From: Bacillota bacterium
Lineage (GTDB): Bacteria > Bacillota > Ch66 > Ch109
Reading direction: 5' to 3'
NCBI GenBank assembly: GCA_050952625.1
Contig: JBMNLH010000007.1
Location: 85,165 to 149,164 of the forward strand
DNA length: 64,000 bases
The notes beneath the pieces are model-generated. The model was not told the origin of the DNA. It worked only from the letters and a program-made list of their open reading frames with translations, and searched no databases. Both the position numbers and the translations under genes were made by a program. Within the stretch, counting starts at the first letter, position 1, and every line of letters begins with the position of its first letter. Positions 38,703 through 57,221 of the stretch are shown here, piece after piece.

Positions 38703-38716
38703 GCTTGGATACCCCT

Positions 38717-38830
38717 TTACAAAATTTGTTTAGCTCTACTGGCAAGCTCGGATAAAGAGAAAGGCGTTTTAGCGTGACAAGTTGCACTAAAACGCCTTTC
38801 CAGAGTTTTGTATATTTGGATTAATTACTA
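38717..38830 (-). repeat. Conserved cassette end with terminator (copy 3); left border of the accessory region
   Basis: TTACAAAATTTGTTTAGCTCTACTGGCAAGCTCGGATAAAGAGAAAGGCGTTTTAG...CTAAAACGCCTTTC, repeated near 44496, 53336 and partly at 57041. Confidence 0.9.
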
Positions 38831-39342
38831 TTAATGTCCGGTTACATATATTTTCCATTCTCCGTTATGATGAAGGTACTTTAATTGATCTTCAGTATTA
38901 TTCCTGAGTTCTATATCTACTTCTGCCACCCAAATCGTTCCTTTTTCCGATATTTTATCTTCTATTTGTTTCTGTGCCTTTAAAATTTCTTTGAAGTCCT
39001 CTTCCCTAAATACTTCATGATTAATACGCTCCGGATGGTTCTGTGCTTCTATAACCTCGGCGGGAACTTCTTCAATGGGAATTTCTTTAAAAGGCATACT
39101 TTCATCTTCGAAAATTGGTCTTTCCCTCAATTGGTCGACCGGTATCTCTTTGACAGAAATAACCTTAGCAGAAATAATGGATGGCCCGACGTTATCACGA
39201 AGTAATTCATAAAGTTTCCTCTGGTCTTCTATAGATCCTCGGACATCCAAACAATATTTCATCATGCTATCAATATCTCCGCGCTGGTCAGCTTCAACGA
39301 AATTATTGATAACAGACTCTGCCTCTGCTAAGGTTAAAATTG
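38831..39342 (-). pseudogene. Partner protein C (NTF2-like), 5'-truncated copy
   Basis: Near-identical to 44609-45352 from LTLAEAESVINNF onward; signal peptide region replaced by an IS remnant. Confidence 0.85.
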
Positions 39343-39510
39343 GATCAAGTCCGTATAATGGTGTAGAAATAAAATGAGCCATAAATTCATTTCCTCGGTT
39401 AAGATATAAGTGCCTATCAAATACCAAACCGAGGGAGGAATGAATCCATGACTCAGTTTAATATTACCCTAACCGAAGAACATTTACACGGACTTTTTGT
39501 TTCAAATGGA
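39343..39510 (+). mobile_element. IS256-family left-end remnant
   Basis: GGATCAAGTCCGTATAATGGTGTA end; RBS plus MTQFNITLTEEHLHGLF start. Confidence 0.6.
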
Positions 39511-39737
39511 GGCTTGGAATATGAAGAGAAAAATAAATATAACTTGATTGGACACCAATTGTTGTACTTCTTCCTCCAGGCAAATCTGCTTATGGTGGCT
39601 GGAATGCATATGATTTTTGGCTGACAATTAGTCTACCACGCACAGGGGATTACACGACTTTAGTAAGTTGCAGTGATATATATTGGCCATTGTCTTCAAC
39701 TAGACAACTATATTTTTAATTGTGAGGTGTTAAAGTT

Positions 39738-40436
39738 ATGAAAAGCAAAAAAATAATCATGCTTACCAGTGCTTTCTTGTTTTTCATTGGACTAACAATA
39801 TTTGTTCAATCCTCATATGCTAATACTCTAAGCCAAAAAATAGAACAAATAAAGAGAAATGAAATTCATCAAAGATTGGGGGAGGCGTTAAAAGATAACG
39901 TCACCGTTAGTAATTCAGAAAATATAGTAGCTATAGTAAATGGAGAAAATATTTCAGTAAATGAATGGAACTATTATAAAATTTGGGACACTGAGAAAGT
40001 AAAAAATTTTGGAGAAGTAGTTCCTTCCGACCAACAAATTTTAGATAGCCTTGTTAAAAATAAAGTGATTGTGAGTGCTGCTAAACAACAAGGTTTGTAT
40101 CCTAATGAAGAAGAAATTAATTCATATATAAGCGAGCAACGTCAAATTATGGCTAAGGAACGACCTCAGGATGTTTATAACCTTATTAAGGGATGGGGCA
40201 TTAGTGAAGAAGAATATTTTTCTATAATGAAAGATATTTGGGGTGACTCAATTGCGAGGTTAAATTGGTATGATGCACTGCGTAAGAACTCGCCTCAAAA
40301 AGGGAATGAAACTACGGAGGATTATATGATAAGATTGAAAAAGATTTACAATGATGAAGTAGCTAGCTTAGTGGAGAAGCCAAATATAGAAATTACAAAT
40401 CAAGGGATGCTATTGGGACTTAGTTACAGTAAATAA
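39738..40436 (+). CDS. Secreted protein with SurA N-terminal-like chaperone domain
   Basis: Signal peptide; IVAIVNGENIS...ILDSLVKNKVIVSAAKQQGL..NEEEI. Confidence 0.7.
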   Translation: MKSKKIIMLTSAFLFFIGLTIFVQSSYANTLSQKIEQIKRNEIHQRLGEALKDNVTVSNSENIVAIVNGENISVNEWNYYKIWDTEKVKNFGEVVPSDQQILDSLVKNKVIVSAAKQQGLYPNEEEINSYISEQRQIMAKERPQDVYNLIKGWGISEEEYFSIMKDIWGDSIARLNWYDALRKNSPQKGNETTEDYMIRLKKIYNDEVASLVEKPNIEITNQGMLLGLSYSK

Positions 40437-40750
40437 AAATAGAGCAGAGGGCGGGTGTATTTGTCAACCGAAATGTTGACCACCTTGGCGAAAAAAATAT
40501 ATGATAGTTTACCTGTAACTAATAAAAAAACATTGAATTTTGGAGGGTTTATGAATTAGCATAATTTTCAATCTATATTGGCAGATAATCAGCATATATG
40601 AGTAATATTTTGAGATAGTCCCATTAGTGTACTTAAATAGGACCATTATGTGCATCAAATAAATCCACTTTGGTCATGATGAGATCCACTTTCTGTATAA
40701 TGATGAAATACACTACAAATGGTGTAAATCTTTATCAGGGGGTCGATCAA

Positions 40751-41775
40751 ATGATCAAGTATCGAGAAATTCTTCGGCTTCACAGCCAAGGTGTAAGCCA
40801 GCGCGGTATTGCCGCCGGTTGCCAGTGCTCACGAACCTCTATCCGCAATGTGCTTGAGCGAGCAGAAAGACAGGGTGTTTCTTGGCCTTTCAAAAAAGAC
40901 CTGACAGATGCAAACCTTCAGGAATTGCTTTTTCCCGAAAAGAGCAGTCAGTCCAATCGAAAGCCGCCGGATTGCGAATACATCCACCGAAAAATGGCCA
41001 AAAGTGGTGTTACCCTAAGTCTGTTATGGCATGAGTACTGTGAGCAGTGCCGGTTAAGCGGTGAGATTCTACTTATGTACAGCCAGTTTTGCCGGTATTA
41101 CCGCAAGTATGCCAACACCACCAAAGCCACCATGCGCATCAAACGTAAACCAGGTGAAATGCTTGAGGTGGACTGGGCTGGAAAGACTGCATTCATCACC
41201 GATAATCTAACAGGCGAACCCATCCCAGCATACATCTTTGTATCCGCTTTGTCCTGCAGTCAGTATGCTTATGTTGAAGCTTTTTTGTCCATGAACATGG
41301 AAAGCTGGATCAATGCTCATATCAATGCTTTCAACTACTTTGGCGGTGCTACCAGAATTTTGGTGCCGGACAACCTAAAGACCGGTGTAGACAAAGCCTC
41401 TCGTCAGGATCCTCAGATCAATAAAACCTACCACGAGATGGCGGAGCATTACGGTACAGCGGTGATTCCAGCCCGGGTGAGACACCCCAAGGACAAACCC
41501 ACTGCAGAAGGCACCGTGGGAATCATCTCCACCTGGCTTATTGCCTCCCTGCGGCACCAACAGTTCTTTTCCCTTCGAGAACTTAACAGTGCCATTCGGC
41601 TGAAGCTGGAAGAATTCAATCAGAAACCTTTTCAAAAGAAACCGGGAAGCAGGAAAAGTGCCTTTCTTGAAGAGGAAAAAGCCTTGCTACTGCCATTACC
41701 GGCCTCCCCATACGAACTTGCCACTTGGTCAACGGCATCCGTACAGTATGATTATTGCATAATTGCAGATAAAAA
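40751..41775 (+). mobile_element. IS21-family IstA transposase, 3'-truncated
   Basis: MIKYREILRL..QGVSQR.IA HTH, PGEMLEVDWAG, VPDNLKTGV, PKDKPTAEG. Confidence 0.88.
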
Positions 41776-41996
41776 TCTTGAGTATCACACCGACCGGAAG
41801 TTAGATAAGATACCGATGATAGTTGATCCCCTTTGCTTCGCACCAAGCCTTTGCGGTCATTCCACTGGCCCGGCATTCAACCACTAGTGCCTGCTGTTCA
41901 TTTTTGTCCATCTAAAACCTCCATACCTTAGTTTTATGGAGATATTTTCTCATGGACAGGGCGTGTTGACCATGCACCCGAATACTGAGCACTTAC
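41776..41996 (-). mobile_element. IS66-family left-end remnant with tnpA fragment
   Basis: End GTAAGTGCTCAG at 41996; ATG at 41911 gives MDKNEQQALVVECRASGMTAKAWCEAKGINY. Confidence 0.7.
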
Positions 41997-42134
41997 CCTT
42001 GTTCTTTATGCCATACTCGCTTCTTTTTTTGCTAGCTGAAAGGGCAAAGACTCTCTGCCTCTGCCCTTAATCCTGTTTCTTATTCAGTCTTAACTATTTA
42101 CATAAAATCTAAAAGTCTCGCAACTGATAATTAT

Positions 42135-42917
42135 TTATTGTATCTTTCCGTCAGATCCCCCTACCTGGAATTCACCTATTACAGTTTCCCCATCAACATC
42201 ATAAAGCGGAATAGTAAATCCCGCTAGAGATTTTTTTGTCATTTCTAAACATTCTTTTTCAGATGTAGGATCCTCCCCATCTAAATCTTTGGAATAAACA
42301 TATCCTACTGTTACTCCATCAACACCCATAGCTAGAATTAAATCCGGTTCATCATCTGGAGAGATAGCATCAAGCCCGCTTCCATAGGTTTGACCGTTCT
42401 TATTCACTTTGTAAGGTTGTTTCTGGGATTCTTCCTGAACGTTACCTGACTTGGCTGATGGCGCATATGGCCACCAATCAGTTGTATAACAATTATAGTC
42501 ATTCCAAAAGTTATTTGAAGCAGTGTAAACTCCAAATTGTCCTTGACTTCTCCAAGAACCATATGGGTTAGGAACTAAGGTTGTCCTGGCCATAACTTGA
42601 GTTGTTTCAGTATTAGTTACCCATCCAGATTCACGGTATAAAGCATCAATTCCATCGTACAATCTAGCTTTTGCCCGCAGGGTACTTACCGGAGTAGTTT
42701 GCCCACCAGACACACCTGCCCAAGTCTGCGCGCTTACCTCAGTTTGATAATAACCAGTAAGTTTAGATACTCCTGCATAAGTCTTATTATTATGATATAC
42801 ATATTTTGCAGAACTCTCTATAGTCTCTGCTAGTGCTAGTGCTAAAGGTGCCCATAAGACTAGAGAAGAGATAACTAATAGGGATGTCAGACACCTTCTC
42901 ATTTTTTTACCTAACAT
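42135..42917 (-). CDS. Secreted two-domain hypothetical protein
   Basis: Signal peptide, beta-rich Tyr/Thr/Trp domain, C-terminal YKVNKNGQTYGS...EPDLI...GYV...IPLYDVDGETVIGEF domain. Confidence 0.75.
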   Translation of the reverse strand: MLGKKMRRCLTSLLVISSLVLWAPLALALAETIESSAKYVYHNNKTYAGVSKLTGYYQTEVSAQTWAGVSGGQTTPVSTLRAKARLYDGIDALYRESGWVTNTETTQVMARTTLVPNPYGSWRSQGQFGVYTASNNFWNDYNCYTTDWWPYAPSAKSGNVQEESQKQPYKVNKNGQTYGSGLDAISPDDEPDLILAMGVDGVTVGYVYSKDLDGEDPTSEKECLEMTKKSLAGFTIPLYDVDGETVIGEFQVGGSDGKIQ

Positions 42918-43238
42918 TGTCTTACCACCTATCCTTTCTTTCCCACAATTAATAAAATTCTTAATTAATGCTATTTATATATAATAAATCACCTGCCTTA
43001 CATAATTATGACAGAGTATACTACGCAAAGTTCTATCAAAAATCCGTTATCTGTGATTTAAAGTTGACCAACTATTGCTTTCCTGAGGCATTATGTCTTG
43101 TGCACCTGTTGCACTAGCGAAAGTTGCTCCTGTAATCTAAGGGTAATTGCTAGCACAAACCAAAACCATGTAATAATTTGCTTATATTGTCCCGTTCTCT
43201 AAACATCATAAAATCTCCCCCCAAGAATAGTATTGATT

Positions 43239-43670
43239 CTAATAACATGTGGAAGAGTATAATGACTTGCTTTCCAACAGATTGCCGGAAGCGTTATAAA
43301 CTTTAGCCGTTGCACATACCCGATACGTACCGTTGACAACGTAATAACTCTCTTCTACAGTGGCAACAGAGACCCCGGTCGATGATGCGGACCATGTCTT
43401 GATTGTATTCCAACTACTACCGGCGGATTTTTGCAGTTCGACAGTAAGTATTGTTGTGTGCGAACTATCGTAAGCTGAAGCAAGCCCCATACAGGTGGCT
43501 TTTCCCGTCGAGTTGATCGATAACCCCGGACTTAATAGAGATATGTACGTCCATTGAGGAGCGACCACTCCTTGTGTCCCTACGTTTGTTGTCTGGCCAG
43601 CTGCGTAAGCCGGAACGATGCAGACAACAGTCATAAGGACAAGGATACCCAGGCAGATGAACTTTTTCAT
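43239..43670 (-). CDS. Secreted protein A, copy 3 (possibly DUF6147-like)
   Basis: Signal peptide, APQWTYI, ELQK..G.SW.TIKTWS, G.YRV; paralog of 55105-55536 with altered last residues. Confidence 0.8.
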   Translation of the reverse strand: MKKFICLGILVLMTVVCIVPAYAAGQTTNVGTQGVVAPQWTYISLLSPGLSINSTGKATCMGLASAYDSSHTTILTVELQKSAGSSWNTIKTWSASSTGVSVATVEESYYVVNGTYRVCATAKVYNASGNLLESKSLYSSTCY

Positions 43671-43705
43671 AAAATAAAACCTCCTTTAAAATATCTTTCA
43701 ATAAC

Positions 43706-43735
43706 AAAAGACAACCAAAGGAGGTTTTTGCAACA
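43706..43735 (-). promoter_or_regulatory. Candidate ECF promoter motif
   Basis: TGTTGCAAAAAC-N9-TTGTCTTTT; also at 46766-46795, 55572-55601 and 50159-50188 (+). Confidence 0.55.
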
Positions 43736-43780
43736 GATTTTTTTTATTTTTTTAGAAAATAATTTCTTCACTTATTTAAA

Positions 43781-43830
43781 TTTATTCTATATATTTTACC
43801 CCTTCGGCCATCTTTACCGCCATATCTTTC
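43781..43830 (-). pseudogene. 3' remnant of the anti-sigma gene (copy 3)
   Basis: Identical to 46841-46890 (KDMAVKMAEGVKYIE*). Confidence 0.85.
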
Positions 43831-44425
43831 CACATAATGCCAGATCCTTTGGAGCGTGGACTTAGGAAGGTTGGATATGCCTTCTACAGATTCTCTTCCG
43901 TACCTTATCATTATGGATATTAAACCGCCCAAGATATAATCAGATAACTCTACAAACCAGTTTCGCCAGCGGCCAATAGTGGACTCGTCCGTTGCGACCG
44001 TCAGATCGTCATTTCCGGTAATAACCGATTCAATGCTTTCGCTGCTATGGCGTTTATATGGAACCAGGATATCCGGAAGCTCGTGATGTATCCGATGGCA
44101 ATGACAACAACGAAGTCGACGGATAACTAGGACATTTTTATTTCCTGCGTCATTAATGAACCCGCGATGACGGCTGCCAATAACCTTCAATGACCCATTA
44201 CAGCATGGACAAGGATTCTGCTCCGCGCTCCTTACAAAAACACCCTTTTCAAGGTTTTCAATCAGTTCATATTCTGCTACAATGATCATACTAAGTAGTG
44301 GGGACGCCCCTGGTGCTTCTATTGGCGTGGAAAGCATCTTATAAAGGGGCGTCTTTTCCTTTCTGTATAATATGGTCATTATATACAGCAATCTCTGGTC
44401 AGGCAATTCCATCAGCTTTTTGACA
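43831..44425 (-). mobile_element. Remnant of a DUF6431-type transposon (first ORF, truncated)
   Basis: TGTCAAAAAGCTGATG end at 44425; ATG at 44289; CPCC.GSLKVIGSR...LVIRRLRC..C.RIHHELPDILVPYKR. Confidence 0.65.
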
Positions 44426-44442
44426 TTTTAGCTTGGCTCAGA

Positions 44443-44608
44443 CACCTTGACCAGCAATGAGTGCCAGCTATTGGTCTAGCCCCCTAGAAAGGTATTACAA
44501 AATTTGTTTAGCTCTACTGGCAAGCTCGGATAAAGAGAAAGGCGTTTTAGCGTGACAAGTTGCACTAAAACGCCTTTCCAGAGTCTTGTATATTTGGATT
44601 AATTACTA
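44443..44608 (-). repeat. Conserved cassette end with terminator (copy 2)
   Basis: CACCTTGACCAGCAATGAGTGCCAGCTATTG...TTACAAAATTTGTTTAGC...hairpin. Confidence 0.9.
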
Positions 44609-45352
44609 TTAATGTCCGGTTACATATATTTTCCATTCTCCGTTATGATGAAGGAACTTTAATTGATCTTCAGTGCGGTTCCTGAGCTCTATATCTACAT
44701 CTGCCACCCAAATCGTTCCTTTTTCCGATATTTTATCTTCTATTTGTTTCTGTGCCTTTAAAATTTCTTTGAAGTCCTCTTCCCTAAGTACTTCACGATT
44801 AATACGCTCCGGATGGTTCTGTGCCTCTATGACCTCGACGGGAACTTCTTCAATGGGAATTTCTTTAAAAGATATATTTTCATCTTCGAAAATTGGTCTT
44901 TCCCTCAATTGGTCGACCGGTATCTCTTTGACAGAAATAACCTTAGCAGAAGCAGAAATAATGGATGGCCCGGAATCATGAAGTATTTCATAAAGTTTCC
45001 TCTGGTCTCCTACAGATCCTCGGACATCCAAACAATATTTCATCATGCTATCAATATCTCCGCGCTGGTCAGCTTCAACGAAATTATTGATAACGGACTC
45101 AGCCTCTGCTAAGGTTAAAGTTGGGGGTTTCTCACTAATGTAATCAGCGTTGTACACTTCAATGGTTCTAATGCCATCAGCGTCGTGCACTTCAATGGTT
45201 CTAATGCCATCATCAGCGTCGTACACTTCAACAGTTCGAGTTGACGATTTCTCACTAGCATTTTTGGCAATAGCATTAAAAGAAAATCCCAAGATAAGGA
45301 TAAGACTAACAGCCAGTGTCAACGTAACCGTCCACTTGCGATTTATTTTCAT
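44609..45352 (-). CDS. Secreted/anchored partner protein C, NTF2-like (copy 2)
   Basis: Signal peptide; AESVINNFVEA..RGDIDSMMKY..DVR; C-terminal HNGEWKIY; 3x RT(V/I)EVx(D/N)AD repeat. Fold is inferred. Confidence 0.75.
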   Translation of the reverse strand: MKINRKWTVTLTLAVSLILILGFSFNAIAKNASEKSSTRTVEVYDADDGIRTIEVHDADGIRTIEVYNADYISEKPPTLTLAEAESVINNFVEADQRGDIDSMMKYCLDVRGSVGDQRKLYEILHDSGPSIISASAKVISVKEIPVDQLRERPIFEDENISFKEIPIEEVPVEVIEAQNHPERINREVLREEDFKEILKAQKQIEDKISEKGTIWVADVDIELRNRTEDQLKFLHHNGEWKIYVTGH

Positions 45353-45369
45353 TAATATACCTCTCCTTT

Positions 45370-45798
45370 CTAATTTTGATATATTTCTCCATAACCAGCA
45401 TAAGCTTGGTTCCCATTTGTGACCGTAATCTCAAGTGTAGCCGCACTATCTGCTTTTGGTGTACTACTCATTTCCGCATAAACAGCAGGACCAGAATAAT
45501 TATATACACTGGATGAGTAACTGCACCTACTGCCAACTCCAAAGACGTCACGAGTATAAACGGAATAATTTATGGTATAGGGATTATAGGGAGTGGAAGT
45601 TGACCACTGCCGCAAATTAATATACAAAGGATTCGTATTTGGAACATTGAAAGGTGCTGTTTTAATAAAATTTGTAATTTGAAAACTATAATCTTTAATT
45701 TGTGTCGCTTGTGCCTCTTTTATATCTGCATTGACAATCGTAGGAATAAGCATAGTAACTAACAAGAAACTAATAATCATGTAGCGTTTAACCTTCAT
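45370..45798 (-). CDS. Secreted variable protein B (copy 2, intact)
   Basis: Signal peptide (..IVNA); FNVPNTNPLYINLRQW; C-terminal YAGYGEIYQN. Confidence 0.8.
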   Translation of the reverse strand: MKVKRYMIISFLLVTMLIPTIVNADIKEAQATQIKDYSFQITNFIKTAPFNVPNTNPLYINLRQWSTSTPYNPYTINYSVYTRDVFGVGSRCSYSSSVYNYSGPAVYAEMSSTPKADSAATLEITVTNGNQAYAGYGEIYQN

Positions 45799-46294: not shown

Positions 46295-46730
46295 TCAATA
46301 TATTACCGTGGAAGAGTATAATGACTTGCTTTCCAACAGATTGCCGTATATGTTATAAACTTTAGCCGTTGCACAAACCCGATAGGTACCGTTAATAACG
46401 TAATAACTCTCTTCTACAGTGGCGATGGAGACCCCGGTCGATGATGCGGACCATGTCTTGATTGTGTTCCAACTACTACCGGCGGATTTTTGCAGTTCGA
46501 CAGTAAGTATTGTTGTGTGCGAACTATCGTAAGCTGAAGCAAGCCCCATACAGGTGGATTTTCCCGTAGAGTTGATCGATAACCCCGGACTTAATAGAGA
46601 TATGTACGTCCATTGAGGAGCGACCACTCCTTGTGTCCCCTACGTTTGTTGTCCCGTCAGTTGCGCAAGCCGGAACGACGCAGACAACAGTCATAAGGAC
46701 AAGGATACCCAGGCAGATGAACTTTTTCAT
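46295..46730 (-). pseudogene. Secreted protein A, copy 2, +1 frameshift
   Basis: Extra C in GTCCCCTAC (~46637-46640) versus GTCCCTAC in copy 3; split across two ORFs. Confidence 0.8.
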
Positions 46731-46840: not shown

Positions 46841-49482
46841 TTATTCTATATATTTTACCCCTTCGGCCATCTTTACCGCCATATCTTTCTCCGTCTGGGC
46901 TCGAATCATAAACATGCGTTTATTCATTGACCAGATGATGGTAACCAGAGAGTTTTTCACGACAACGGTTCCCTCATGTCCGTTGATGCTGATGGTTTCA
47001 ATGACGGAAGCATTTTCCGTATCCAAAGCGGGCTTGTTGCCTTCACTTAATTCCATATAAGTTATAAACAAGCCCTGCGGATTTTTAAATTCGATTCTTC
47101 TTAAAAGTTCGCTATTAGAGCTATCACTGACTTTATATCCGTCCGGTATATAGGTCGGCACATAAGCATTGTGCCAATCTATAGCCACACTGCCCCCCCT
47201 CCGAACCATTCTCATTGTTCTTTAACTCAAAGGACGTATATTCCTGTTGGATTTCCATTAAATCCCATGTTCATCATGTCGCCCTAAACCTTTTTGATTT
47301 ATAACAAAAGGAAACTATTTCCACAAATTATGCGTTTAGTGATATCGGTTTGAGATAGATTTCTTCCGGGTTAAACCCGGCCCAACGGACCATATTTAAA
47401 GCTTGACGGTTAACATTATCCGGAAAATATCTCTGACCCTGAATACTTACTGTTTGAATAGTACCCAATACTTCCAGTATAGTTTGCACTGAAGGTCTGT
47501 CTGTACTTTTGTTTCCCGGTAATTTCACTGCTTCTCCTCGTTCCTTTAGGGCCTTGCGAACTCGGTACTCCAGGTAGGAAGCCAGCAGTAAGACCAGGAT
47601 AAACACGTAGCCTAGCGCATAAATTCGCTTCGGGTTTTCCAAGTATACTGGGCCTAAATATACGCGGTTTTTGAGGAATCGAAACTTGGTTTCAATTGAG
47701 ATCTGCCGTTTATACTCTAATAAAATCCCTTGATCATCGTATTTTTGACGATCTTTCACATTGGCGATCAGCACGAAGGTAGATTCCATTTGGAGCAGGT
47801 ACTGGTAAACCTCTGGTTTTATATCGCCAACACTGACTTCAGCGTGATATGTCGTGGTAATCGTCGGTTCTTCTCCATTGCGGGGTTTTCCTCGGTGACC
47901 GTAAGACTTTTTGACGCAGATCTGAACCGTTCCTTGAACCTCAAAGCCTTTTCGCTGGCATTCTTGAAGGAAGACATCTAAAGCAGCCTGGGCATCAGGT
48001 TCACAGGCAAAAGCCTTAGTTTTTAAGCCTTTACTCTGTTTAATTAACTCCTCTTTTTGCTTCCCGATCCGTTTTTGTAAGGTCTTTTCTTTCTGGGCTT
48101 CCAGGGAAGAGGAGTGAACTACCACAAAATCATAAGTGTGTCCTTCCAGTTCATGATGGACCAAATAGGTTCGGTAGTGAGAAGCCTTTTTCGAGTTGGT
48201 TTCACTGACTATCCCAATGTCATGCCAGGAGTTTTCGGCCCAGGCCAGTGTTTTTAGTTCTTTCGCCAGGTTATAGGTTTCCGGCAGTCGAGAGATAAAC
48301 TGAACGTGCTGCTTGGTCAGATTGGCTAAAGATTCGTTAGAGATCAGGGCACAGTCACCAACAAAAACGACATCCCGATAACCTTGGGTATCAAAGAACT
48401 CTTTCATTTTCAAGGCTGCTTCCGGGTTCCATTTGTTATCAGATTTGTTCCCAGAGAGCATTTCACCCATGACTACTTGGCCGTTTTGTTGCACTGCAGC
48501 CCCAATTTTGAATTGTTTAAGGTCCGGGCGCAGATCCTTACTGTGGCCTCTATTAATCGTAAAATCGTTGTATGGCTCTACATCATAGATTCCTTCGACC
48601 GATATGGAAGTAGTATCTAGATGAACCGTGGAGATATCTAAATTGTGAATATCAAGCATCACCAAGGATACCAAACTGATCAGTTTGTTCAAATCAACTT
48701 CAGCTAGTTTATCTAAGGCCCGGCCGTAGGCATGTTCGTTAAGCTGATCAATTGATAATTCCACATCGGGAAACAGGTTAGATAAATCCTGCTCAGCCCA
48801 AAATTGATGCACTTTCCATAAAGGCATCCGGCCGCAGAAGATACTAATAATGAGGGTTTCGATCAGGAGACCCGGAGAGATTTTAGAATTATCTTCTCTC
48901 CATAATACTATCTCGTTAACCAGTTCCCGAATCTTAGCTAGACGACAGAGCTTGGTGACTACCGGAACAGCCATTGGTTTAAGGGTCTTAATCCCAGCAA
49001 ATATTGACAATCGAATCAACTCCCAAAGAAATATCTTAGAGAGTTATATTCGACATAAATTTACCGGTCCCTGCCAGATACTGGACATTTTTTAAATATT
49101 TTTTCTGTAAAGTTTTGACATGCCGAATGCGGGTTAAATAATTCAGCACCCTTACTCTAACTGCTTGGACGGTCACCACGGTGGTGCATAGTATAACAAA
49201 TATGATCAGCATAGCAACTGCCACTCTGTTTAAGACCTTCAGAATGTGCTGCCTTCTGGCATAAGCCTTCGGCTTTTTAAGATGGACATCCAGTAATTGG
49301 CTGAATTTTTGGACTGCTTCCTTGGAAGGCAAAAATTCGGGATCATCTTTGAGCTTTTCTTTTTCTTCCAGAAAAAGCTGGCCTTCTTTTTCCGCTACAT
49401 CGTACATGACCAATTTAAACAGACTGTCTTCATATTCCTCGTATAGCTTTTTCCGAATTTGTTCCTGACTGTTATTTGGCAT
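46841..49482 (-). pseudogene. DUF4367-type anti-sigma factor, copy 2, interrupted by an IS and frameshifted
   Basis: Both halves match 55640-56404; C7 run at 47193-47199 versus C6 in the intact copy. Confidence 0.88.
47264..49133 (-). mobile_element. IS1634-family insertion sequence (transposase 47328-49019)
   Basis: HLDTTSISV.G.Y, GHSKD.RPDLKQ, IETKFRFLK; 6-bp TSD TTAAAT at 47258-47263 and 49134-49139; imperfect IRs CCC...TTC..CATGTC. Confidence 0.92.
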
Positions 49483-50044
49483 GCTTATTCATCTCCTTAT
49501 CCATGAGGTCTTTGGCTTTTCTTCGGGCTCGTGTCAAATACTGCCGGACGCTGTCCGGAGATATTTCAAAAATTCTCGCTATCTCCCGATCCTTCATTTC
49601 CAATATGTACTTAAAATACAACAGGTCTTTCTGCTTCTCCGGAAGCCTCAATATGGCATTACCCAGCTCTTCTATTTCTTCCTGATGGACGACCCTTTCT
49701 TCCATGGTATCTCCAAGGTTGGGGATCCTTTCCGCCAGATCCCGATCTTTTCCATAATACGTATGTTTTTTCTGTACATCACGGTGTTTTATAAAGTTAA
49801 TGGCTACACTCTTAGAAGTATAGACAATATAAGCAGTCCTTTTGCAACTGTCTAGAGTTCGAATTAAAGATATTTTTTCAATTAGTTTTATGAAAGTATC
49901 GTTGATCAAATCCTCCACATGGTTCGCGTCGTGGGTAATATTGTAAACAGTCTTTCGCACCAACCCATAATAATCATGATATAGATTCAGCATAAAGGCC
50001 TTACTCTCATCGCTTTCTATTGCGACGATTAACATCATGATCAT
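49472..50044 (-). CDS. ECF RNA polymerase sigma factor (copy 2)
   Basis: EDLINDTFIKL region 2; LPEKQKDLL...EIARIFEISPDSVRQYLTRAR region 4; overlaps the anti-sigma start. Confidence 0.92.
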   Translation of the reverse strand: MIMMLIVAIESDESKAFMLNLYHDYYGLVRKTVYNITHDANHVEDLINDTFIKLIEKISLIRTLDSCKRTAYIVYTSKSVAINFIKHRDVQKKHTYYGKDRDLAERIPNLGDTMEERVVHQEEIEELGNAILRLPEKQKDLLYFKYILEMKDREIARIFEISPDSVRQYLTRARRKAKDLMDKEMNKHAK

Positions 50045-50158
50045 TACGAATCACATCCTTTATTAGGATTATACATAATCCTAATAAGAATTTGTGATAA
50101 GACAATGAAGGAATCTCCAAAATCGTAAAATTGTGCTTAAGAATTTTTTTGCACTAAA

Positions 50159-50188
50159 TGTTGCATAAACTTTTAAAGATTGTCTTTT
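50159..50188 (+). promoter_or_regulatory. Candidate ECF promoter motif upstream of the divergent B/C pair
   Basis: TGTTGCATAAAC-N9-TTGTCTTTT; same boxes and spacing, different spacer sequence. Confidence 0.55.
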
Positions 50189-50546
50189 ATTGATAAGACG
50201 ACTTTAAAGGGAAATTTGCCCATTAAATAAAGGCATAAAATATTCCGGGTTTTTAGGAGATGTACTACCGCTCCGTTTAAACAGGTGTCACTTAAATACT
50301 CAAGGATTAACAGTTTGATATAAATAAATGGAAAGGAGGTGATGAAGTTGAAAATGAAAGGTCTAAGTTCCACCATATCAATTGAAGTAAGTATGGTGAA
50401 GCGAACACACTTACTCCTTTGGGCTCCCCCGATCATCAATTTAAACTAATCTTCGACCGGTTTATGAAAATGTTGTAATTTACCAGGAAGTTGATTTGTT
50501 TAATCAGTAAGAAAAATTGCAGAATTTGTGAAGGGAGATATTTTTT

Positions 50547-50984
50547 ATGAGCAAGAAGCATATTACTTTAACCGTTTTTCTTTTGGTTTTCCTGCTTAGC
50601 ATTCCGGTAATAACTAATGCACAAGATGATTCAAAAAATCTATTAAGTTCCAGATCAATGCTTGATAGTTATCAATTTTCGGGATTGTTGTCAAATAACA
50701 TTTACTCCCAGGACACCTTTAACACTAATGGAACCAATATACTGTTAAATTATCGGCAATGGGACAATGTTCCTCAATGTATCCAAACTGTTAGATACGT
50801 AATATGTAATCACGGTTATATTTATGATACCGACTATGTATACAATACCTCTGATGTCGATGATGAAAATCAGGCTTATCAAATGTATTTAGGAGCCCCA
50901 CCTGCCGGCACAGACAGATCATTAAAGATAATTAATGAAACTCGGGTATATCCCATTAGCGGTTTCGGAGAACTGTATGAATAA
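50547..50984 (+). CDS. Secreted protein B, divergent paralog
   Basis: Signal peptide; FNTNGTNILLNYRQW and ISGFGELYE align with FNVPNTNPLYINLRQW and YAGYGEIYQ. Confidence 0.75.
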   Translation: MSKKHITLTVFLLVFLLSIPVITNAQDDSKNLLSSRSMLDSYQFSGLLSNNIYSQDTFNTNGTNILLNYRQWDNVPQCIQTVRYVICNHGYIYDTDYVYNTSDVDDENQAYQMYLGAPPAGTDRSLKIINETRVYPISGFGELYE

Positions 50985-51023
50985 CGATACATCTATAAAA
51001 AAATAAAACGGGAGGAAATAACA

Positions 51024-51437
51024 ATGCGTATTCTCAGTCAAAAATACTCTTGGAAGATCGTTATTGTATTAGGAGCAATGTTAACTTTTGTATTCGCTGT
51101 ATATGCAGTAGCATCATCTGAACAAACCAAGGAAGAAACAATAGTAGAAACCCTATTAGATAAACATATTAGCGCTGTAAATAGTGGTGATGTTGATACT
51201 CTAATGAAAATGGCAATCGATGTAAGACAAAGCCCAGAAGAAACCCGAAAGCTCTACACTCGATTACGCGGAAAAGATAATTTCACTCCAGTATCTTATA
51301 CTATAAACAAAATAACTAAAGAAGGTGAGTATATATTAGTTGATACAACTTTTAAAATGAAAGATGGTCACACGGAGAACCCGACATTAAAAATTATTAA
51401 TCATGAAGGGGAATGGATATTTTATGTCACTCCGTAA
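51024..51437 (+). CDS. Partner protein C, short divergent paralog (NTF2-like)
   Basis: GDVDTLMKMAIDVRQSPEETRKLY and NHEGEWIFYVT align with GDIDSMMKYCLDVRGS..DQRKLY and HHNGEWKIYVT. Confidence 0.75.
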   Translation: MRILSQKYSWKIVIVLGAMLTFVFAVYAVASSEQTKEETIVETLLDKHISAVNSGDVDTLMKMAIDVRQSPEETRKLYTRLRGKDNFTPVSYTINKITKEGEYILVDTTFKMKDGHTENPTLKIINHEGEWIFYVTP

Positions 51438-51730
51438 TAAAGCTTAATAGTCAATATGTTTAATCTTAAAAATAGAATGAGTAGGAAGCGGATTACCTCG
51501 CTAATCCCAGGTTGACGAAATTTAAATAACTTTTCAGCCCTTGCGTCTTCCAGTAGGAAGTAGCAAGGGCATTATTTTCAGTTACTGAACATAATACTAG
51601 AACCCTCGAACCCTATACAGTTGGTAGAGAATATAAACGCCAGATTAGATTGAAACCAAGTTTAAATTCCTCAACAAGGATGCGGTTTCCGAATGTCAAC
51701 GACTTGTTGGGACAGGTAGGGAGGTAAAGC

Positions 51731-51933
51731 ATGACTGATTAAAATCAGGTGATGGTTCGAGCAGCCGGGGTGCTGATGGCGATAAGTGTTCTGGCCCGGT
51801 TAGCCGGGTTTATTCGGGAGCAGGCGATTGCTGCTAAGTTTGGCACCAGCATGGCGACTGATGCCTATGTGGTGGCTTATACAGTGGCGAATACCGTTTA
51901 TTTGATCAATCGGTGGGGCATTAGCCACGGTTT
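51731..51933 (+). pseudogene. murJ: 5' remnant of lipid II flippase MurJ
   Basis: VRAAGVLMAISVLARLAGFIREQAIAAKFGTSMATDAYVVA; early stop, frameshift, IS insertion, truncated near 53283. Confidence 0.8.
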
Positions 51934-53268
51934 GAGTGTGTAAAATAAATTGTGCTTCTGCTCTTTCCGAATATAAAATGAAACGGAAAGGCAGGAATAC
52001 ATATGGAGAAGAAGAAACTGGTCTCCCGAGCTGAGATCAAGCAATTCATCAAAGAGAACGACCTAAAAAGCGTTGAAGACATCCAGAATGTCCTTAATGA
52101 CCTCTTTGCCGAGACCCTACAAGAGATGCTGGAGGCCGAATTGGATACCACCCTAGGCTATGAAAAGAACGATGTTCAAAACAAAAGGACAAGCAACCGG
52201 CGTAATGGGCATAGTACTAAAACTGTACGCAGCGAATTCGGAGAAATCGACATACAGATCCCCTGGGACCGCGAAGGCGAACATGATCCTCTAATCGTCA
52301 AAAAGCATCAGAAGAATGTGACCGGTATCGAAGACCAAGTATTGGCTCTCTACGCCAAAGGGGTTAGCACTCGTGATATCCAGGATCATTTGGAGCGCCT
52401 GTACGGAATTGAGGTTTCGCCTACTCTAATATCTAATATCACCAACAAAATCATGCCTATGGTCAAGGAGTGGCAGAACCGGCCGCTGCAGAAGATCTAT
52501 GCAGCCGTCTTCCTGGATGCAATCCATTTTAAAGTCAAGCAGGACGGCCAGATTGTAAACAAGGCAGCCTATATGGTAATAGGCATCGACTTGGATGGCA
52601 ATAAAGACGTATTGGGCATCTGGATCGGGGAAAACGAATCTGCCAAGTTCTGGCTCTTAAACGAACTTAGAAACCGTGGAGTTCAGGATATTCTAATCGT
52701 TTGCGTGGATAATCTCACTGGGTTTAGTGAAGCCATATCGGCCTGCTACCCGGATGCTGAGATCCAGAAGTATATCGTGCACCAGGTGAGAAATTCCATA
52801 CGCTATGTCTCATACAAAGATGTTAAGAAGATAACTGCCGCCTTAAAGACCATTTACACGGCATCTTCTGAGCCCGCTGCTTGCGAAGAGCTAAACCAAT
52901 TTGAAGCTACTTGGGGAGACAAATATCCACTGATAGTCCGGTCCTGGCGCAACAACTGGGCGGAGATCTCGACGTTTTTCAAGTATCCACCTGAGATTAG
53001 AAAAATCATCTATACTACCAATATGATCGAAAGTTATCACCGGCAGCTCCGCAAAGTAACCAAGGGTAAGAGTATTTTCCCAACGGATGAAGCGCTCTTA
53101 AAGATGCTATATATGGCCACCCAAGATGTCTTGAAGAGATGGACCGGCCGGGTCCAAAACTGGGGGCAAATTCTGCTACAGCTGTCTATTTACTTCCCCG
53201 ACAAAGTTAAAGCGCACCTACGATGAACAGACGGAAGAAAGGCAAAGCACAAAATTATTGACAGACCC
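51934..53268 (+). mobile_element. IS256-family insertion sequence (transposase 52003-53226)
   Basis: RRNGH, LYAKGVSTRDI, FLDAI, YTTNMIES; IRs GAGTGTGTAAAATAAATTGTGCTT / GGGTCTGTCAATAATTTTGTGCTT; 8-bp TSD CACGGTTT. Confidence 0.95.
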
Positions 53269-53283
53269 CACGGTTTCCTACCT

Positions 53284-53454
53284 CACCTTGACCAGCAATG
53301 AGTGCCAGCTATTGATCTAGCTCCCTAGATAGGTATTACAAATTTTGTTTAGCTCTACTGGCAAGCTCGGATAAAAAGAAAGGCGTTTTGGTGCAACATT
53401 GACAAGTTGCACTAAAACGCCTTTCCAAAGTCTCATATATTTAGGTAATTACTA
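53284..53454 (-). repeat. Conserved cassette end with terminator (copy 1)
   Basis: Matches 44443-44608. Confidence 0.9.
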
Positions 53455-54126
53455 TTATTTTCCATCTATATACATCTTCCACTCGCCATTATGATGAAGA
53501 AACTTTATTTGATCTTCAGTGAGCCCATTCCTGTACTTCATATCTACTTTCGCCACCCAAATCGTTCCTATTTTTGATATTTTATTTTCTATTTGTTTCT
53601 GTGTCTCTAAGATTTTTTCGCATTTCTCTTCTTTAAGTTCTTCACGAGGAATGTCCTCCGGGTTGTTCATTGCCTCAATGACCTCGGCGGGAACGTCTTC
53701 AATGGGGATTTCTTTAAAAGATATACTTTCATCTTGGATAATTGGTCTTTCCCTCAATTGGTCGACGGGTATCTCTTTGACAGAAATAACCTTAGCAGAA
53801 ATAGTAAATGGTCCATCAGCAATGAACAATTTATAAAGGTCCCTCTGGTCTTCTACAGTGCCTCTAACATCCAAAATATATTTCATCATGCTATCAATAT
53901 CTCCGCGCTGTTCAGCTTCAACGTAATTATTGAGAATAGACTCAGCCTCTGCTAAGGTTAAAATTGGGGGTTCTTCACTAATGTAATCAGCGTTGTACAC
54001 TTCAACGGTTCGAGTTGACGATTTCTCACTAGAATTTTTGGCAATAGCATTAAAGGAAAATCCCAATATAAGGATAAGACTAACAGCCAGTGTAACCATA
54101 AATGTCCACTTGCGATTTGTTTTCAT
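53455..54126 (-). CDS. Partner protein C (copy 1)
   Basis: Start MKTNRKW at 54126 after GAGG; paralog of 44609-45352. Confidence 0.8.
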   Translation of the reverse strand: MKTNRKWTFMVTLAVSLILILGFSFNAIAKNSSEKSSTRTVEVYNADYISEEPPILTLAEAESILNNYVEAEQRGDIDSMMKYILDVRGTVEDQRDLYKLFIADGPFTISAKVISVKEIPVDQLRERPIIQDESISFKEIPIEDVPAEVIEAMNNPEDIPREELKEEKCEKILETQKQIENKISKIGTIWVAKVDMKYRNGLTEDQIKFLHHNGEWKMYIDGK

Positions 54127-54145
54127 AAGTAAATACCTCACTTTT

Positions 54146-54614
54146 CTAATTTTGATATATTTCTCCATAACCAGAATAAGCTTGGTCCCCTTTCTTGATC
54201 GTAATATGAAGTGTAGCTTGATCCCCTTTCTTGATCGTAATATGAAGTGTAGCTTGATTATCTTGTACTGGTGCTCCACTCATTTGCGCATAAACAGCAG
54301 GACCGGAATAATTATATACGCTGGATGAGTAACTGCTCATCTTGGGAGTCCCAGTGGGTGTGTGCGTAAAAACGGTATATTCTATGGTATAGGGAGTATA
54401 ATCAGATGAAGTTGACCATTGTCGCAAATTAATATATAAAGGATTTGAATTTGGAACATTAAAAGGCGATGAGTAAACCCAATTTTTAATATTTGAGAAA
54501 GTATAACTTTTAATTTGTGCCGCTTGTGCCTCTTTTATATCTGCATTGACAATCGTAGGGAATAAGCATAGTAACTAACAAGAAACTAATAATCATGTAG
54601 CGTTTAACCTTCAT
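54146..54614 (-). pseudogene. Secreted variable protein B (copy 1), +1 frameshift in signal peptide and a 36-bp in-frame duplication
   Basis: Same N-terminus as the gene starting at 45798; ATTCCCTACG versus ATTCCTACG; QATLHITIKKGD twice. Confidence 0.85.
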
Positions 54615-55104
54615 AATCCCGCCTCCTTATTACTTTATTATCTCCTTACTTAATTATCAAGGTCGCTGTTCAAAATGAGTTACACCAATAAAAAGCAATT
54701 AGTTAAAATCAACAAACTTAAAGCATAGGGATCACCTCATTTAATAAACTCTCGACATCTCCACAATGCTCCTATTTTCAGTATTTCACTTTGTTTATCT
54801 TGAACCTACTTTCAGGATGTCCTTAAATTCCTGGTAGCTTTTGTGTTTTCCGGCAGAGCAAAACAAACCACATGGGATTCTTTTTTCTCGGCCATTGGGA
54901 TTCCACATCAGCTCCAGGCGGCTAACCTCCTAGGTCTCCCAGCATCAGCGTGGTCTAATTCCTTCGTCCGGCCTATCCTAGAGATGGAACGTCAGTCATG
55001 CTCCCTACGCTGTGTCAGTGCCCTCAAGGTGAAATTCAATCCTGCTGCACGGTCTTCGATTGTCAAAGTTTTTCCTAGTCAGACAAATTGACGATCATTG
55101 TAAT

Positions 55105-55536
55105 TCAATATATTACCGTAGAAGAATATAATGATTGGCTTTCCAATAGGTTGCCGGAAGCGTTATAAACTTTAGCCGTTGCACATACCCGATAAGTACC
55201 GTTAACAACGTAATAACTCTCTTCTACCGTGGCGATGGAAACCCCGGTCGATGATGCGGACCACGTCTTGATTGTGTTCCAGCTACTCCCGGCGGATTTT
55301 TGCAGTTCGACAGTAAGCCTTGTTGTGTGCGAACTGTCGTAAGCTGAGGCAAGCCCCATACAGGTGGCTTTTCCCAACGAGTTGATTGATAGGCCTGGAC
55401 TTAACAACGATATGTAAGTCCATTGAGGAGTGATCACTCCTTGTGTCCTGTTTGTTGTCTCGCCAGCTGCGCAAGCCGGAACGACGCAGACAACAGTCAT
55501 AAGGACAAGGATTCCCAGGCAGATGAACTTTTTCAT
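55105..55536 (-). CDS. Secreted protein A, copy 1 (possibly DUF6147-like)
   Basis: Intact paralog with signal peptide and two conserved Cys in the mature part. Confidence 0.82.
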   Translation of the reverse strand: MKKFICLGILVLMTVVCVVPACAAGETTNRTQGVITPQWTYISLLSPGLSINSLGKATCMGLASAYDSSHTTRLTVELQKSAGSSWNTIKTWSASSTGVSIATVEESYYVVNGTYRVCATAKVYNASGNLLESQSLYSSTVIY

Positions 55537-55639
55537 AAAATAAAACCTCCTATAAAATATCTTTCAATAACAAAAGACAACCAAAGGAGGTTTTTGCAAC
55601 AGATTTTTTAACTTTTTAAGAGAATATTTTCTTTTCTTC

Positions 55640-56404
55640 TTAATCTATAAATTTCACTCCTTCAGCCATCTTTACCGCCGTCTCTTTATCCGTCTGGGCC
55701 CGAATCATAAACATGCGATCATTCATTGACCAGATGATCGTAACTAGAGAGTTTTTCACGACAACTGTTCCTTCATGTCCATTGATGCTGACTGCTTCAA
55801 AGGTGGAAGCATTTTCTGTATCCAGCGCGGGCTTGTTGCCTTCGCTTAATTCTGTATAGGTGATAAACGATCCCTGGGAATTTTTAAATTCGATTCTTTT
55901 TAACAATTCGCTGTTGGTGCTATTGCTGACTTCAAATCCGTCCGGTATATAGGTCGGGACATAAGCATTGTGCCAATCTATAGCCACACTGCCCCCCTCC
56001 GAACCGTTGTCATTGTTCTTTAATTCAAAGGACGTATATTCCTGTTGGATATCCATTAAATAATTCAGCACCCTTACTCTAACTGCTTGGACGGTCACCA
56101 CGGTGGTGCATAAGATAACAAGTACGATCAGCATAACAACCGCTACTTTGTTTAATGCCTTCAAAATGCGCTGCCTTTTGGCGTAAGCCTTCGGCTTTTT
56201 CAGATGAGCATCCAGTTGTTGGCTGAATTTTTGGACTGCTTCCTTGGAAGGCAGAAATGCCGGATCATCTTTGAGCTTTTCTTTTTCTTCCAGAAAAAGC
56301 TGGCCTTCTTTTTCCGCTACATCGTGCATGACCAATTTAAACAGACTGTCTTCATATTCCTCATACAGCTTTTTTCGAATTTGTTCCGGACTATTATTTG
56401 GCAT
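55640..56404 (-). CDS. Membrane-anchored anti-sigma factor with DUF4367-type extracellular domain
   Basis: Single TM; YVPTYIPDGF, LDTENA, VSINGHEG, IIWSMND; follows the ECF sigma gene. Confidence 0.85.
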   Translation of the reverse strand: MPNNSPEQIRKKLYEEYEDSLFKLVMHDVAEKEGQLFLEEKEKLKDDPAFLPSKEAVQKFSQQLDAHLKKPKAYAKRQRILKALNKVAVVMLIVLVILCTTVVTVQAVRVRVLNYLMDIQQEYTSFELKNNDNGSEGGSVAIDWHNAYVPTYIPDGFEVSNSTNSELLKRIEFKNSQGSFITYTELSEGNKPALDTENASTFEAVSINGHEGTVVVKNSLVTIIWSMNDRMFMIRAQTDKETAVKMAEGVKFID

Positions 56405-56966
56405 GCTTATTCATCTCCTTATCCATGAGCTCTTTGGCTTTCCTTCGGGCTCGTGTCAAATATTGCCGAACGCTGTCAGGAGATATTTCGAAAATTTCTG
56501 CTATATCCCGATCCTTCATTTCCAATATGTACTTAAAATACAACAGGTCTTTCTGCTTCTCCGGAAGCCTCAATATGGCGTTCCCCAGCTCTTCTATTTC
56601 TTCCTGACGGACGATCCGGTCTTCCATGGTGTCTTCAAGGTTGGAAACCCTTTCTGCCAGATCCCGGTCTTTTCCATAATACGCATATTTCTTCCGCACA
56701 TCTCGGTGTTTTATAAAGTTGATGGCCACACTCTTAGAAGTATAGACAATATAGGCGGTCCTTTTGCAACTGTCCAGAGTTCGAATTAAAGAAACTTTTT
56801 CAATTAGTTTTATGAAAGTATCATTGATCAAATCCTCTACATGGTCCGCATCATGGGTAATATTGTAAACGGTCTTTCGCACCAGACCATAATAATCATG
56901 ATATAGATTCAGCATAAAGGCCTTATCATAATCGCCTTCCATTGCGGCGATTAACATTATGATCAC
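56394..56966 (-). CDS. ECF RNA polymerase sigma factor (copy 1)
   Basis: Near-identical to 49472-50044. Confidence 0.92.
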   Translation of the reverse strand: MIIMLIAAMEGDYDKAFMLNLYHDYYGLVRKTVYNITHDADHVEDLINDTFIKLIEKVSLIRTLDSCKRTAYIVYTSKSVAINFIKHRDVRKKYAYYGKDRDLAERVSNLEDTMEDRIVRQEEIEELGNAILRLPEKQKDLLYFKYILEMKDRDIAEIFEISPDSVRQYLTRARRKAKELMDKEMNKHAK

Positions 56967-57040
56967 TTAAATCACATCCTTATATAAGGATTATATAAGG
57001 ATTACAAACAACAATTGGTAACAGAAAATGAAGGAATCGA

Positions 57041-57221
57041 GATAAGGAGAAAGGCGTTTTAGTGTGACAAGTAGCACTAAAACGCCTTTCCAGAGTCTTG
57101 GATATTTATATTAATTACTATTAATGTCCGGTTACATATATCTTCCATTCTCCGTTATGATGAAGGAACTTCAATTGATCTTCAGTGCGGTTCCTGAGCC
57201 CTATATCTACTTCTGCCACCC
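57041..57221 (-). pseudogene. 3' fragment of protein C gene plus terminator (copy 0)
   Basis: WVAEVDIGLRNRTEDQLKFLHHNGEWKIYVTGH* followed by the GAAAGGCGTTTTAG hairpin. Confidence 0.85.

Follow-up and report, generated by a model that had tools for sequence, protein, structure and literature searches.

A decaying array of sigma/anti-sigma cassettes in a Bacillota genome points to a widespread envelope switch with a predicted secreted partner

Switches built on sigma factors of the extracytoplasmic function (ECF) type are the third great class of bacterial signalling; for most ECF groups in Gram-positive anaerobes we know of no signal, partner or regulon. In the RpoE-RseA-RseB switch of Escherichia coli and the AlgU-MucA-MucB switch of Pseudomonas aeruginosa, an ECF sigma factor is combined with a single-pass anti-sigma factor and a third, exported protein, and the C-terminal domain of RseB or MucB is the part that grips RseA or MucA. 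The SigI-RsgI sets of Clostridium thermocellum consist of several paralogous sigma/anti-sigma pairs with outer sensor domains and exported proteins as targets; SigI is not an ECF sigma factor, the RsgI ectodomains are carbohydrate-binding modules, and to our knowledge these sets have neither a conserved secreted third partner nor a tandem arrangement. Here we describe an array of cassettes, each built around an ECF-type sigma gene, an anti-sigma gene and the gene of a secreted protein, A, in a stretch of 64,000 nucleotides (the window) of a Bacillota bacterium (assembly GCA_050952625.1, contig JBMNLH010000007.1). The array recalls the RpoE and AlgU switches by its combination of an ECF sigma factor, a single-pass anti-sigma factor and a third exported protein, for which binding is predicted here, and the SigI-RsgI sets by its paralogous pairs. 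We think it probable, if well short of assured, that the locus encodes a sigma switch whose secreted partner provides feedback and whose exported cargo can be swapped, in an array that was duplicated within the lineage and is now decaying.

All genes of a cassette lie on the minus strand, in the order sigma, DUF4367 anti-sigma, A, spacer, B, C and terminator hairpin (Table 1). A protein search with A gave 83 homologues, with 53-100% identity over most of the length, in Syntrophomonas, Desulfotomaculum, Pelotomaculum, Desulfoscipio and others, and a scan of one genome per species with alignment of A provided 34 further loci. Sigma, anti-sigma and A are adjacent, in order and co-oriented in 28 of them; four others contain the anti-sigma gene (or a fragment of it) and A, one has A at the locus edge, and one only a fragment of A. 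These loci are spread over several orders of Bacillota (Syntrophomonadaceae, Desulfotomaculaceae, Desulfitobacteriaceae, Oscillospiraceae and others), and all neighbours beyond the trio vary from locus to locus. B and C accompany the trio in two loci only (L006 and L007), both from Syntrophomonadaceae. The conserved unit is therefore the trio and not the five-gene cassette, and B-C is a rare passenger of a nearly orphan family. An earlier note, made from the DNA sequence of the window alone, had proposed a five-gene extracytoplasmic module; its sigma/anti-sigma core is supported, and the constant linkage of B-C is not. A full HMMER pass with B over 1.84 billion representatives returned five proteins, namely B itself, a fragment of B1, two true relatives (47% and 31%) and P0090, a low-complexity repeat protein that was set aside as spurious; the search with C returned C itself, C3 and a fragment identical to C1. 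Literature searches found no published description of such a system, which bears out the statement in the same note that no characterised system is known to have this architecture. The trio is an undescribed envelope switch, widespread in anaerobic Bacillota.

The sigma factor (190 aa) matches the Pfam families Sigma70_r2 (E 2.2e-9) and Sigma70_r4_2 (E 9.4e-14), with no other region, and TIGR02937 with 82.4 bits against a cut-off of 42.9. By its domain content (regions 2 and 4 only), its size and the overlapping anti-sigma gene it is classed as being of ECF (group 4) type. The anti-sigma factor matches Pfam DUF4367 (PF14285) over residues 148-250, with 68.4 bits against a cut-off of 22.1, and its model shows long helices at the N-terminus, a single membrane span and an ectodomain (residues 142-254). 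The HxxxCxxC motif of zinc-binding anti-sigma factors is missing from its cytoplasmic part, residues 1-85 being without cysteine. When the ectodomain was compared with known structures, the C-terminal domain of RseB (residues 220-316) was matched over 90 residues with a VIA-align Z of 12.7 and an rmsd of 2.4 A, followed by MucB (Z 11.4) and then by PsbP/Mog1-like folds (Z 8-10); the Foldseek E-value was 1.9e-4. As modelled, the ectodomain folds like the C-terminal domain of RseB/MucB. The arrangement is nevertheless different from that of the described switches: the RseB-like domain is here fused to the membrane span of the anti-sigma factor, and the free partner, A, is an unrelated immunoglobulin (Ig)-like sandwich. 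The LolA-like, lipid-binding N-terminal domain of RseB/MucB is absent, all of the roughly 113 residues of the ectodomain being aligned to the C-terminal domain. A further contrast with the RpoE and AlgU switches is that a promoter-like motif of its own precedes the partner gene, in a host that is Gram-positive.

In the model of A, a signal peptide leads into a beta sandwich of seven strands, and pLDDT is >94 from residue 40 onwards. Foldseek with A found only generic Ig-like domains, including the matrix proteins TapA and RbmA at E-values of about 5e-3. The homologue P0005, 80% identical, is named "DUF6147 family protein" by NCBI, and a search for DUF6147 at E 1e-5 gave no match here. Since all three true DUF6147 loci in 301 genomes lie beside a sigma/DUF4367 pair, A appears to be a distant cousin of DUF6147 in the same gene context, though under the cut-off of that family. 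The one mention of DUF4367 found in the literature is as an extra domain of Bacillus subtilis SsdC; no mention of DUF6147 was found, and no function is described for either domain. PDB sequence searches with the anti-sigma factor, B and C gave nothing under E 0.1.

Complex prediction for ectodomain residues 113-254 with residues 35-143 of A gave a score of 0.79 (0.79, 0.81 and 0.78 in the separate runs), the best of three controls scoring 0.00; among solved complexes 116 of 157 reach this score mark, as against 2 of 215 mismatched pairs. Contacts agreed by at least 69% between runs, and the pLDDT of the partner was at least 90. A is predicted from these models to bind the anti-sigma ectodomain. 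A rival that we hold to be unlikely, though one to be taken seriously, is that A stands only at the output end of the switch, as a protein of the surface or matrix might, and makes no contact with the anti-sigma factor, so that the predicted complex would be a false positive and the adjacency of the genes a matter of co-expression. The difference between 0.79 and three controls at 0.00 argues against this, as does the persistence of A beside the anti-sigma gene in those 28 loci while the other neighbours all change; A is also under the strongest constraint of the five genes, with dN/dS of 0.12-0.13. The same rival gains from the resemblance of A to generic Ig-like sandwiches, TapA and RbmA included, from the occurrence of A-type promoters with another gene in A's place (a holin in L016, Cu_amine_oxidN1 in L006), and from the predicted interface, which is less conserved than the rest of the two domains (0.75 versus 0.85 in A, 0.59 versus 0.70 in the ectodomain). 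A private A/anti-sigma channel for each cassette was also considered and is not supported: the copies in the window differ at 0-1 of 27 interface positions in A and at 3 of 29 in the anti-sigma factor, and with interfaces so nearly identical they would cross-talk.

Nearly all loci carry a bipartite motif, TGTTGCAAAA-N12-TGTCTTT, between the anti-sigma gene and A. A scan that tolerated up to 2 mismatches in 17 positions and gaps of 11-13 found 71 sites in the 34 loci (about 0.5 Mb), versus 12 in the whole 2.9-Mb genome, 6 of these in the array. In 31 of 33 cases a site lies no more than 110 nt ahead of A; the two exceptions are the most distant loci, L037 and L038. In ECF promoters an A/C-rich -35 block is combined with a -10 block of GTC type. 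Because its two blocks, fixed spacing and fixed position before the ribosome-binding site resemble ECF promoters, we infer that the motif is the target of the trio sigma factor. Another 32 sites precede other genes, and 21 of these 32 genes have a signal-peptide-like start. Their families include SH3_3, Cu_amine_oxidN1, CW_binding_2 (CWB2), Amidase_6, phage-type holins, lactococcin-972-like proteins (as cargo in L007) and second sigma-like regulators, and many have no family. Also preceded by the motif are B of L006 and, in the window, B' (site 50159, 388 nt before the start), which belongs to a plus-strand pair, B'-C', missed in the earlier note. In the window and in most loci the sigma operon itself has a housekeeping-type TGTATAAT box; with this box before sigma and the family motif before A and B', the module does not appear to be self-regulated in the way previously suggested. 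In cassette 1, a generic scan for promoters and terminators yielded no more sites than in shuffled sequence.

Two further occurrences of the motif were noted. A weaker form, AGTTGCAAAA-N13-TGTCTAT, lies on the minus strand within the sigma genes (56742-56771 and 49820-49849), 367 nt ahead of the start of the anti-sigma gene, and at the same place in seven other loci; it may be an internal promoter, or a product of chance or of conserved codons. In some genomes the motif also lies ahead of a second sigma-like gene of small size (region 4, HTH_16; L030:1556-2273, L031:7158-7954, L032:2848-3643 and L034:1413-2212), which is followed in L031, L032 and L034 by the gene of a small exported protein of one recurrent family. 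From these second sigma-like genes, a cascade of regulators may be suspected in such genomes.

Before A, the 12 nt that separate the blocks of the motif, together with their flanks, are complementary to A's ribosome-binding site. Over 20 A-type sites the energy of the duplex ranges from -7.6 to -17.9 kcal/mol, compared with about -4 to -6 kcal/mol for shuffles and -3.2 and -5.6 kcal/mol for two sites before other genes. Compensating paired changes preserve the duplex, e.g. GCC with GGC in L015. In L016 a Phage_holin_4_1 gene stands at A's usual place, with an A-type promoter and the ribosome-binding-site mask, twice in tandem (72-419 and 2727-3074).

The following mechanism would accommodate these features. 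The sigma/anti-sigma pair would be made from a housekeeping-type promoter, and released sigma would read TGTTGCAAAA-N12-TGTCTTT before A and neighbouring genes of exported proteins; its targets in the window would be A1-A3 and the divergent B'-C', with B-C probably reached by read-through from A. Transcripts that read through from the sigma operon would carry the mask and hide A's ribosome-binding site, and those that start after TGTCTTT would omit it and leave the site free. Secreted A would bind the outer domain of the anti-sigma factor and feed back, most likely by stabilising the anti-sigma factor as RseB does for RseA, and B-C would be one rare cargo set among many interchangeable ones. 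Several observations weigh against this proposal. The link between motif and sigma factor is one of co-occurrence, and the motif precedes the sigma gene only in L030, L031 and L035, so that classic ECF autoregulation is mostly missing. The motif scan found no site of their own before B1 or B2, whose link to sigma needs read-through of the 490-bp spacer. RNAalifold found no consensus structure in a 19-sequence alignment upstream of A, an alignment that shifts the repeat by one column. A scores 16.9 bits against Pfam DUF6147 (PF19644), under the cut-off of 24 (E 0.0075). To these must be added the lower conservation of the predicted interface and the derivation of the cassette order from a single assembly.

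Within the window, two full cassettes (53284-57038 and 44443-50115) lie head to tail on the minus strand, and a third, broken cassette (38665-43830) and a 182-bp stub (57041-57222) have the same strand and orientation. A direct-repeat search (13 families, with copies at these coordinates), self-BLAST of 36-60 kb and the gene calls confirm the repeated cassette, gene order and remnants that had first been read from the sequence. Nucleotide identity by self-BLAST is 85-90% between 44443-47263 plus 49134-50115 and 53284-57038, 95-96% between 38717-39343 plus 43249-43830 and copy 2, and 78-94% between 57041-57222 and the 3' end of the C genes. At the protein level the copies are 89% identical for sigma, 81-89% for the anti-sigma factor, 92% for A, 62% for B and 68% for C; the description of the first three as nearly invariant was thus too strong. 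Beyond the array, a protein search of the 2.9-Mb genome found no further copies, only unrelated sigma factors with 23-25% identity. The stub, comprising the tail of a C gene and its terminator, abuts the promoter of sigma 1 directly, and the units were therefore arranged head to tail and once numbered at least four.

Table 1. Features of the cassette array, with positions in the window and strand
Feature	Position	Strand	Remarks
Stub of earlier cassette ("cassette 0")	57041..57222	-	last 33 codons of C gene and terminator hairpin
Sigma 1, ECF-type, 190 aa, intact	56394..56966	-	Pfam and TIGR02937
Anti-sigma 1, 254 aa, intact; overlaps sigma gene by 11 nt	55640..56404	-	DUF4367 ectodomain
Promoter-like motif before A1	55573..55601	-	identical sites 46767-46795, 43707-43735
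A1, secreted, 143 aa	55105..55536	-	modelled seven-strand beta sandwich; apparent distant DUF6147 relative
A-B spacer	54615..55104	-	GC-rich part 54885-55074
B1, gene of exported beta-rich protein, broken	54149..54614	-	+1 frameshift near 54558, 36-bp tandem duplication
C1, exported partner protein, intact	53455..54126	-	
Conserved cassette end with terminator hairpin	53284..53454	-	same end at 44443-44608, 38665-38830
IS256-family (Mutator) transposase gene, between cassettes 1 and 2	52003..53226	+	
Divergent cargo of cassette 2	50159..51437	+	motif 50159-50187 (1 mismatch), B' 50547-50984, C' 51024-51437
Sigma 2, intact	49472..50044	-	
Anti-sigma 2, split	46841..49482	-	parts 49036-49482 and 46841-47215
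IS4-like element inside anti-sigma 2	47258-49134 (transposase 47328-49019)		1877 bp
A2, frameshifted	46295..46730	-	one extra G near 46637
B2, 142 aa, intact	45370..45798	-	
C2, 247 aa, intact	44609..45352	-	
DUF6431 gene at sigma/anti-sigma position of cassette 3	43768..44412	-	of insertion sequence-associated kind
A3, 143 aa, intact	43239..43670	-	
Alternative exported cargo behind A3, 260 aa	42135..42917	-	no Pfam family
Inside cassette 3: SurA-N-like exported protein 39738-40436; IS21-like transposase fragment 40670-41887	39738..41887	+	
C3, 3' part of C gene, 172 codons	38831..39343	-	90% identical to C2

No copy is complete, and every one is damaged. Copy 1 is the only one in which sigma, anti-sigma and A are all intact; its C is intact as well, and its B is broken by an extra base in a C run. 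Copy 2, with intact sigma, B and C, is the only one in which both B and C are intact; its anti-sigma gene is split by the IS4-like element, which is flanked by a TTTAA-type target duplication, and its A has a +1 frameshift in a G run. Copy 3 has kept A, behind which lie, in order, another exported-protein gene, the IS21 fragment, the SurA-N-like gene and the 3' part of C, and a DUF6431 gene occupies its sigma/anti-sigma position. The last 60 nt of this DUF6431 gene match the 3' end of an anti-sigma gene. Two more copies of it (82% identity) were observed on contig C1 (1696402-1702283) and a fragment on contig C5; it is therefore part of a multi-copy element. In its C-terminal part, the cargo behind A3 shares 47% identity with a stretch that neighbours the trio of Dehalobacter (L030). 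Between copies 1 and 2, on the plus strand, lies B'-C', whose members are distantly paralogous to B and C. Four genes of insertion sequence (IS) type are present in the array (IS4-like, IS256, the IS21 fragment and the DUF6431 gene); the statement that it contains no integrase still holds. GC content is 34-43% over most of 38-57 kb, versus 45-47% for the contigs.

The state of the copies was compared with metagenome assemblies. Sequencing runs that contain this stretch come from bioreactor, biogas and anaerobic-digester metagenomes of 16 studies, and contigs of four runs were placed on 43000-57400. That the serial copies are an artefact, in which the assembly merged strain haplotypes of a single cassette, is hardly credible to us: the copies differ by 10-15% and have distinct unique neighbours (IS256, B'-C' and the DUF6431 gene), contigs of three DNA runs from three studies match copy-specific parts of both cassettes, mostly at >=99%, and independent contigs bridge unique junctions, e.g. 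49974-50353 and 52459-53313. Extra or partial trio genes in seven of the 34 other loci, including two full trios in L005, point the same way, and on account of these copies serial repetition is to be seen as a habit of the trio family. What could speak for such a merger is that no contig of the other runs spans a whole cassette and that strains differ at this locus. In one contig of run X8, 47257 is joined to 49134 and the IS4-like element is absent; another contig lacks the 36-bp duplication of B1, a strain difference; the extra G at 46637 is missing from one contig of run X1, so that the frameshift of A2 may be a strain difference or an assembly error. The frameshift of B1 stands, because a different contig of X1 runs through 54521-54859 without a gap. 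A B2/B1/B2 mosaic was seen in one contig of run X10, with B2 flanks (45068-46107) around a B1 middle (54222-54520), which reflects either recombination between cassettes in another strain or a chimera of the assembler. Contigs from an RNA library lie on C2, B2, B'-C' (50255-51453), the spacer and the junction of sigma 1 and anti-sigma 1; they may be DNA carry-over and were not counted as expression.

In a tree of 28 sigma factors, sigma 1 and sigma 2 form a sister pair (support 100/99), and the remainder of the tree does not follow taxonomy. These two features favour transfer between lineages followed by duplication in place. The dS between copies 1 and 2, at 0.25-0.40, is similar for all genes. 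Repeated acquisition of the cassettes from outside as a mobile unit would be in keeping with the low GC content and the IS elements around, with the sigma tree, whose discordance with taxonomy implies transfer between lineages, and with the distribution of A, which was not found in 40 sampled relatives of the source genome and has on another metagenome contig a homologue 91% identical to A1 and closest to A2. This explanation is nonetheless very unlikely in our judgement: no sigma factor of the sampled genomes is closer to sigma 1 or sigma 2 than these two are to each other, at the stub the C terminator runs directly onto the sigma promoter as expected of unequal recombination, neither a recombinase nor conserved ends travel with the trio in the 34 loci, and plasmid and phage collections gave no match to the cassette. 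The earlier note had left the choice between amplification and repeated acquisition at one locus; amplification is upheld by the sister sigma factors, and repeated acquisition is disfavoured by the mutual closeness of the copies. With duplication in place as the preferred origin, the locus would be a low-GC, IS-riddled chromosomal array of at least three head-to-tail cassettes and a stub, duplicated within the lineage and now decaying. HelD, sought for a comparison of synteny, was not found in five relatives.

Constraint differs among the genes of the cassette. Between copies 1 and 2, dN/dS is 0.18 for sigma, 0.18 for the cytoplasmic part of the anti-sigma factor, 0.31 for its ectodomain, 0.53 for C and 0.91 for B, with stretches of B reaching about 2; with the value for A given above, it is higher in B and C than in sigma and A, as had been anticipated. 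B1 being a pseudogene and the values not being clearly above 1, relaxed constraint would account for the elevated ratio of B no less well than diversifying selection would, so that the suggestion of a diversifying cargo is upheld as far as the cargo does vary, and selection for diversity is not favoured over relaxation. Clues to the function of the two proteins come from the ESM Atlas, in which B falls in a cluster automatically named Lmo1656 family (score 0.93, a sandwich like that of carbohydrate-binding modules) and C in DUF4829 (score 0.86), both as candidates only. Since both are exported, fast-evolving and strain-mosaic, and the motif-driven cargo of L007 includes a lactococcin-972-like gene, a secreted toxin (bacteriocin) and its immunity partner may be considered as a lead.

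The 490-bp A-B spacer, with a few bases of the flanking genes, is 95-99% identical between copies 1 and 2, and the genes on either side are 84-94% identical; this greater likeness points to gene conversion or constraint. Its GC-rich core (54885-55074 and 46075-46265, minus strand) resembles three sequences outside the window, two of which (L018:12338-12525 and L158:183-320) lie directly 3' of IS110-family transposase genes. No such gene is present in the window, and the core may be a relic of the non-coding (RNA) end of an IS110-type element. A metagenome scan with a 17-nt word of the spacer gave 120 places, nearly all by chance, L134 and L158 alone being real. An Rfam scan of 38000-58000 with E up to 1 gave one chance-level match, outside the spacer, and folding of the GC-rich part was not notable (z-score -1.03).

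The DNA on either side of the array was also inspected. Beside it, on the minus strand at 57337-59091, lies a split gene (57856-59091 and 57337-57771) for an exported protein with Cu_amine_oxidN1 and a beta-propeller. No motif was found before it; since other loci have proteins with the same domains among their motif-driven cargo, it may be a leftover from the cargo of the lost first cassette. A truncated RecQ gene (59319-59972, C-terminal part only) and a gene of 610 aa with 28% GC and no family match (60044-61876) follow, and are further foreign or decayed DNA adjoining the array. A few kb before the array, near the genes for topoisomerase III and HelD, a toxin gene of the Doc (death-on-curing) family is found at 31590-31982.

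New here are the bipartite motif, the RseB/MucB-like fold of the ectodomain, the predicted binding of A and the complementarity of the motif spacer to A's ribosome-binding site. It is tempting to go further and regard the trio as a protein-based self-signalling switch, in which a sigma-induced secreted ligand, A, would act from outside on the RseB-like ectodomain as a signal shared by the population, and polymorphic sets of exported weapons and protection (B-C, lactococcin-972-like proteins, amidases, holins) would be swapped between cassettes and strains; we consider this extension unlikely as matters stand. The single locus is a decaying array, and the main interest lies in the trio family and its wiring. 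A mask of the ribosome-binding site placed in a promoter spacer would, if confirmed, be a compact regulatory trick and a novel way of tying translation to the promoter that has fired. The array provides an example of switches multiplying, exchanging cargo and decaying within one genome. For one ECF group there is now a wiring diagram that can be tested: its elements are a defined promoter motif, an RseB-related ectodomain, a secreted protein predicted to bind this ectodomain, and a regulon predicted to comprise exported proteins and proteins active on the cell wall. Its hosts include syntrophs, dehalogenators, sulfate reducers and gut Oscillospirales, which makes the trio relevant to anaerobic digestion and bioremediation.

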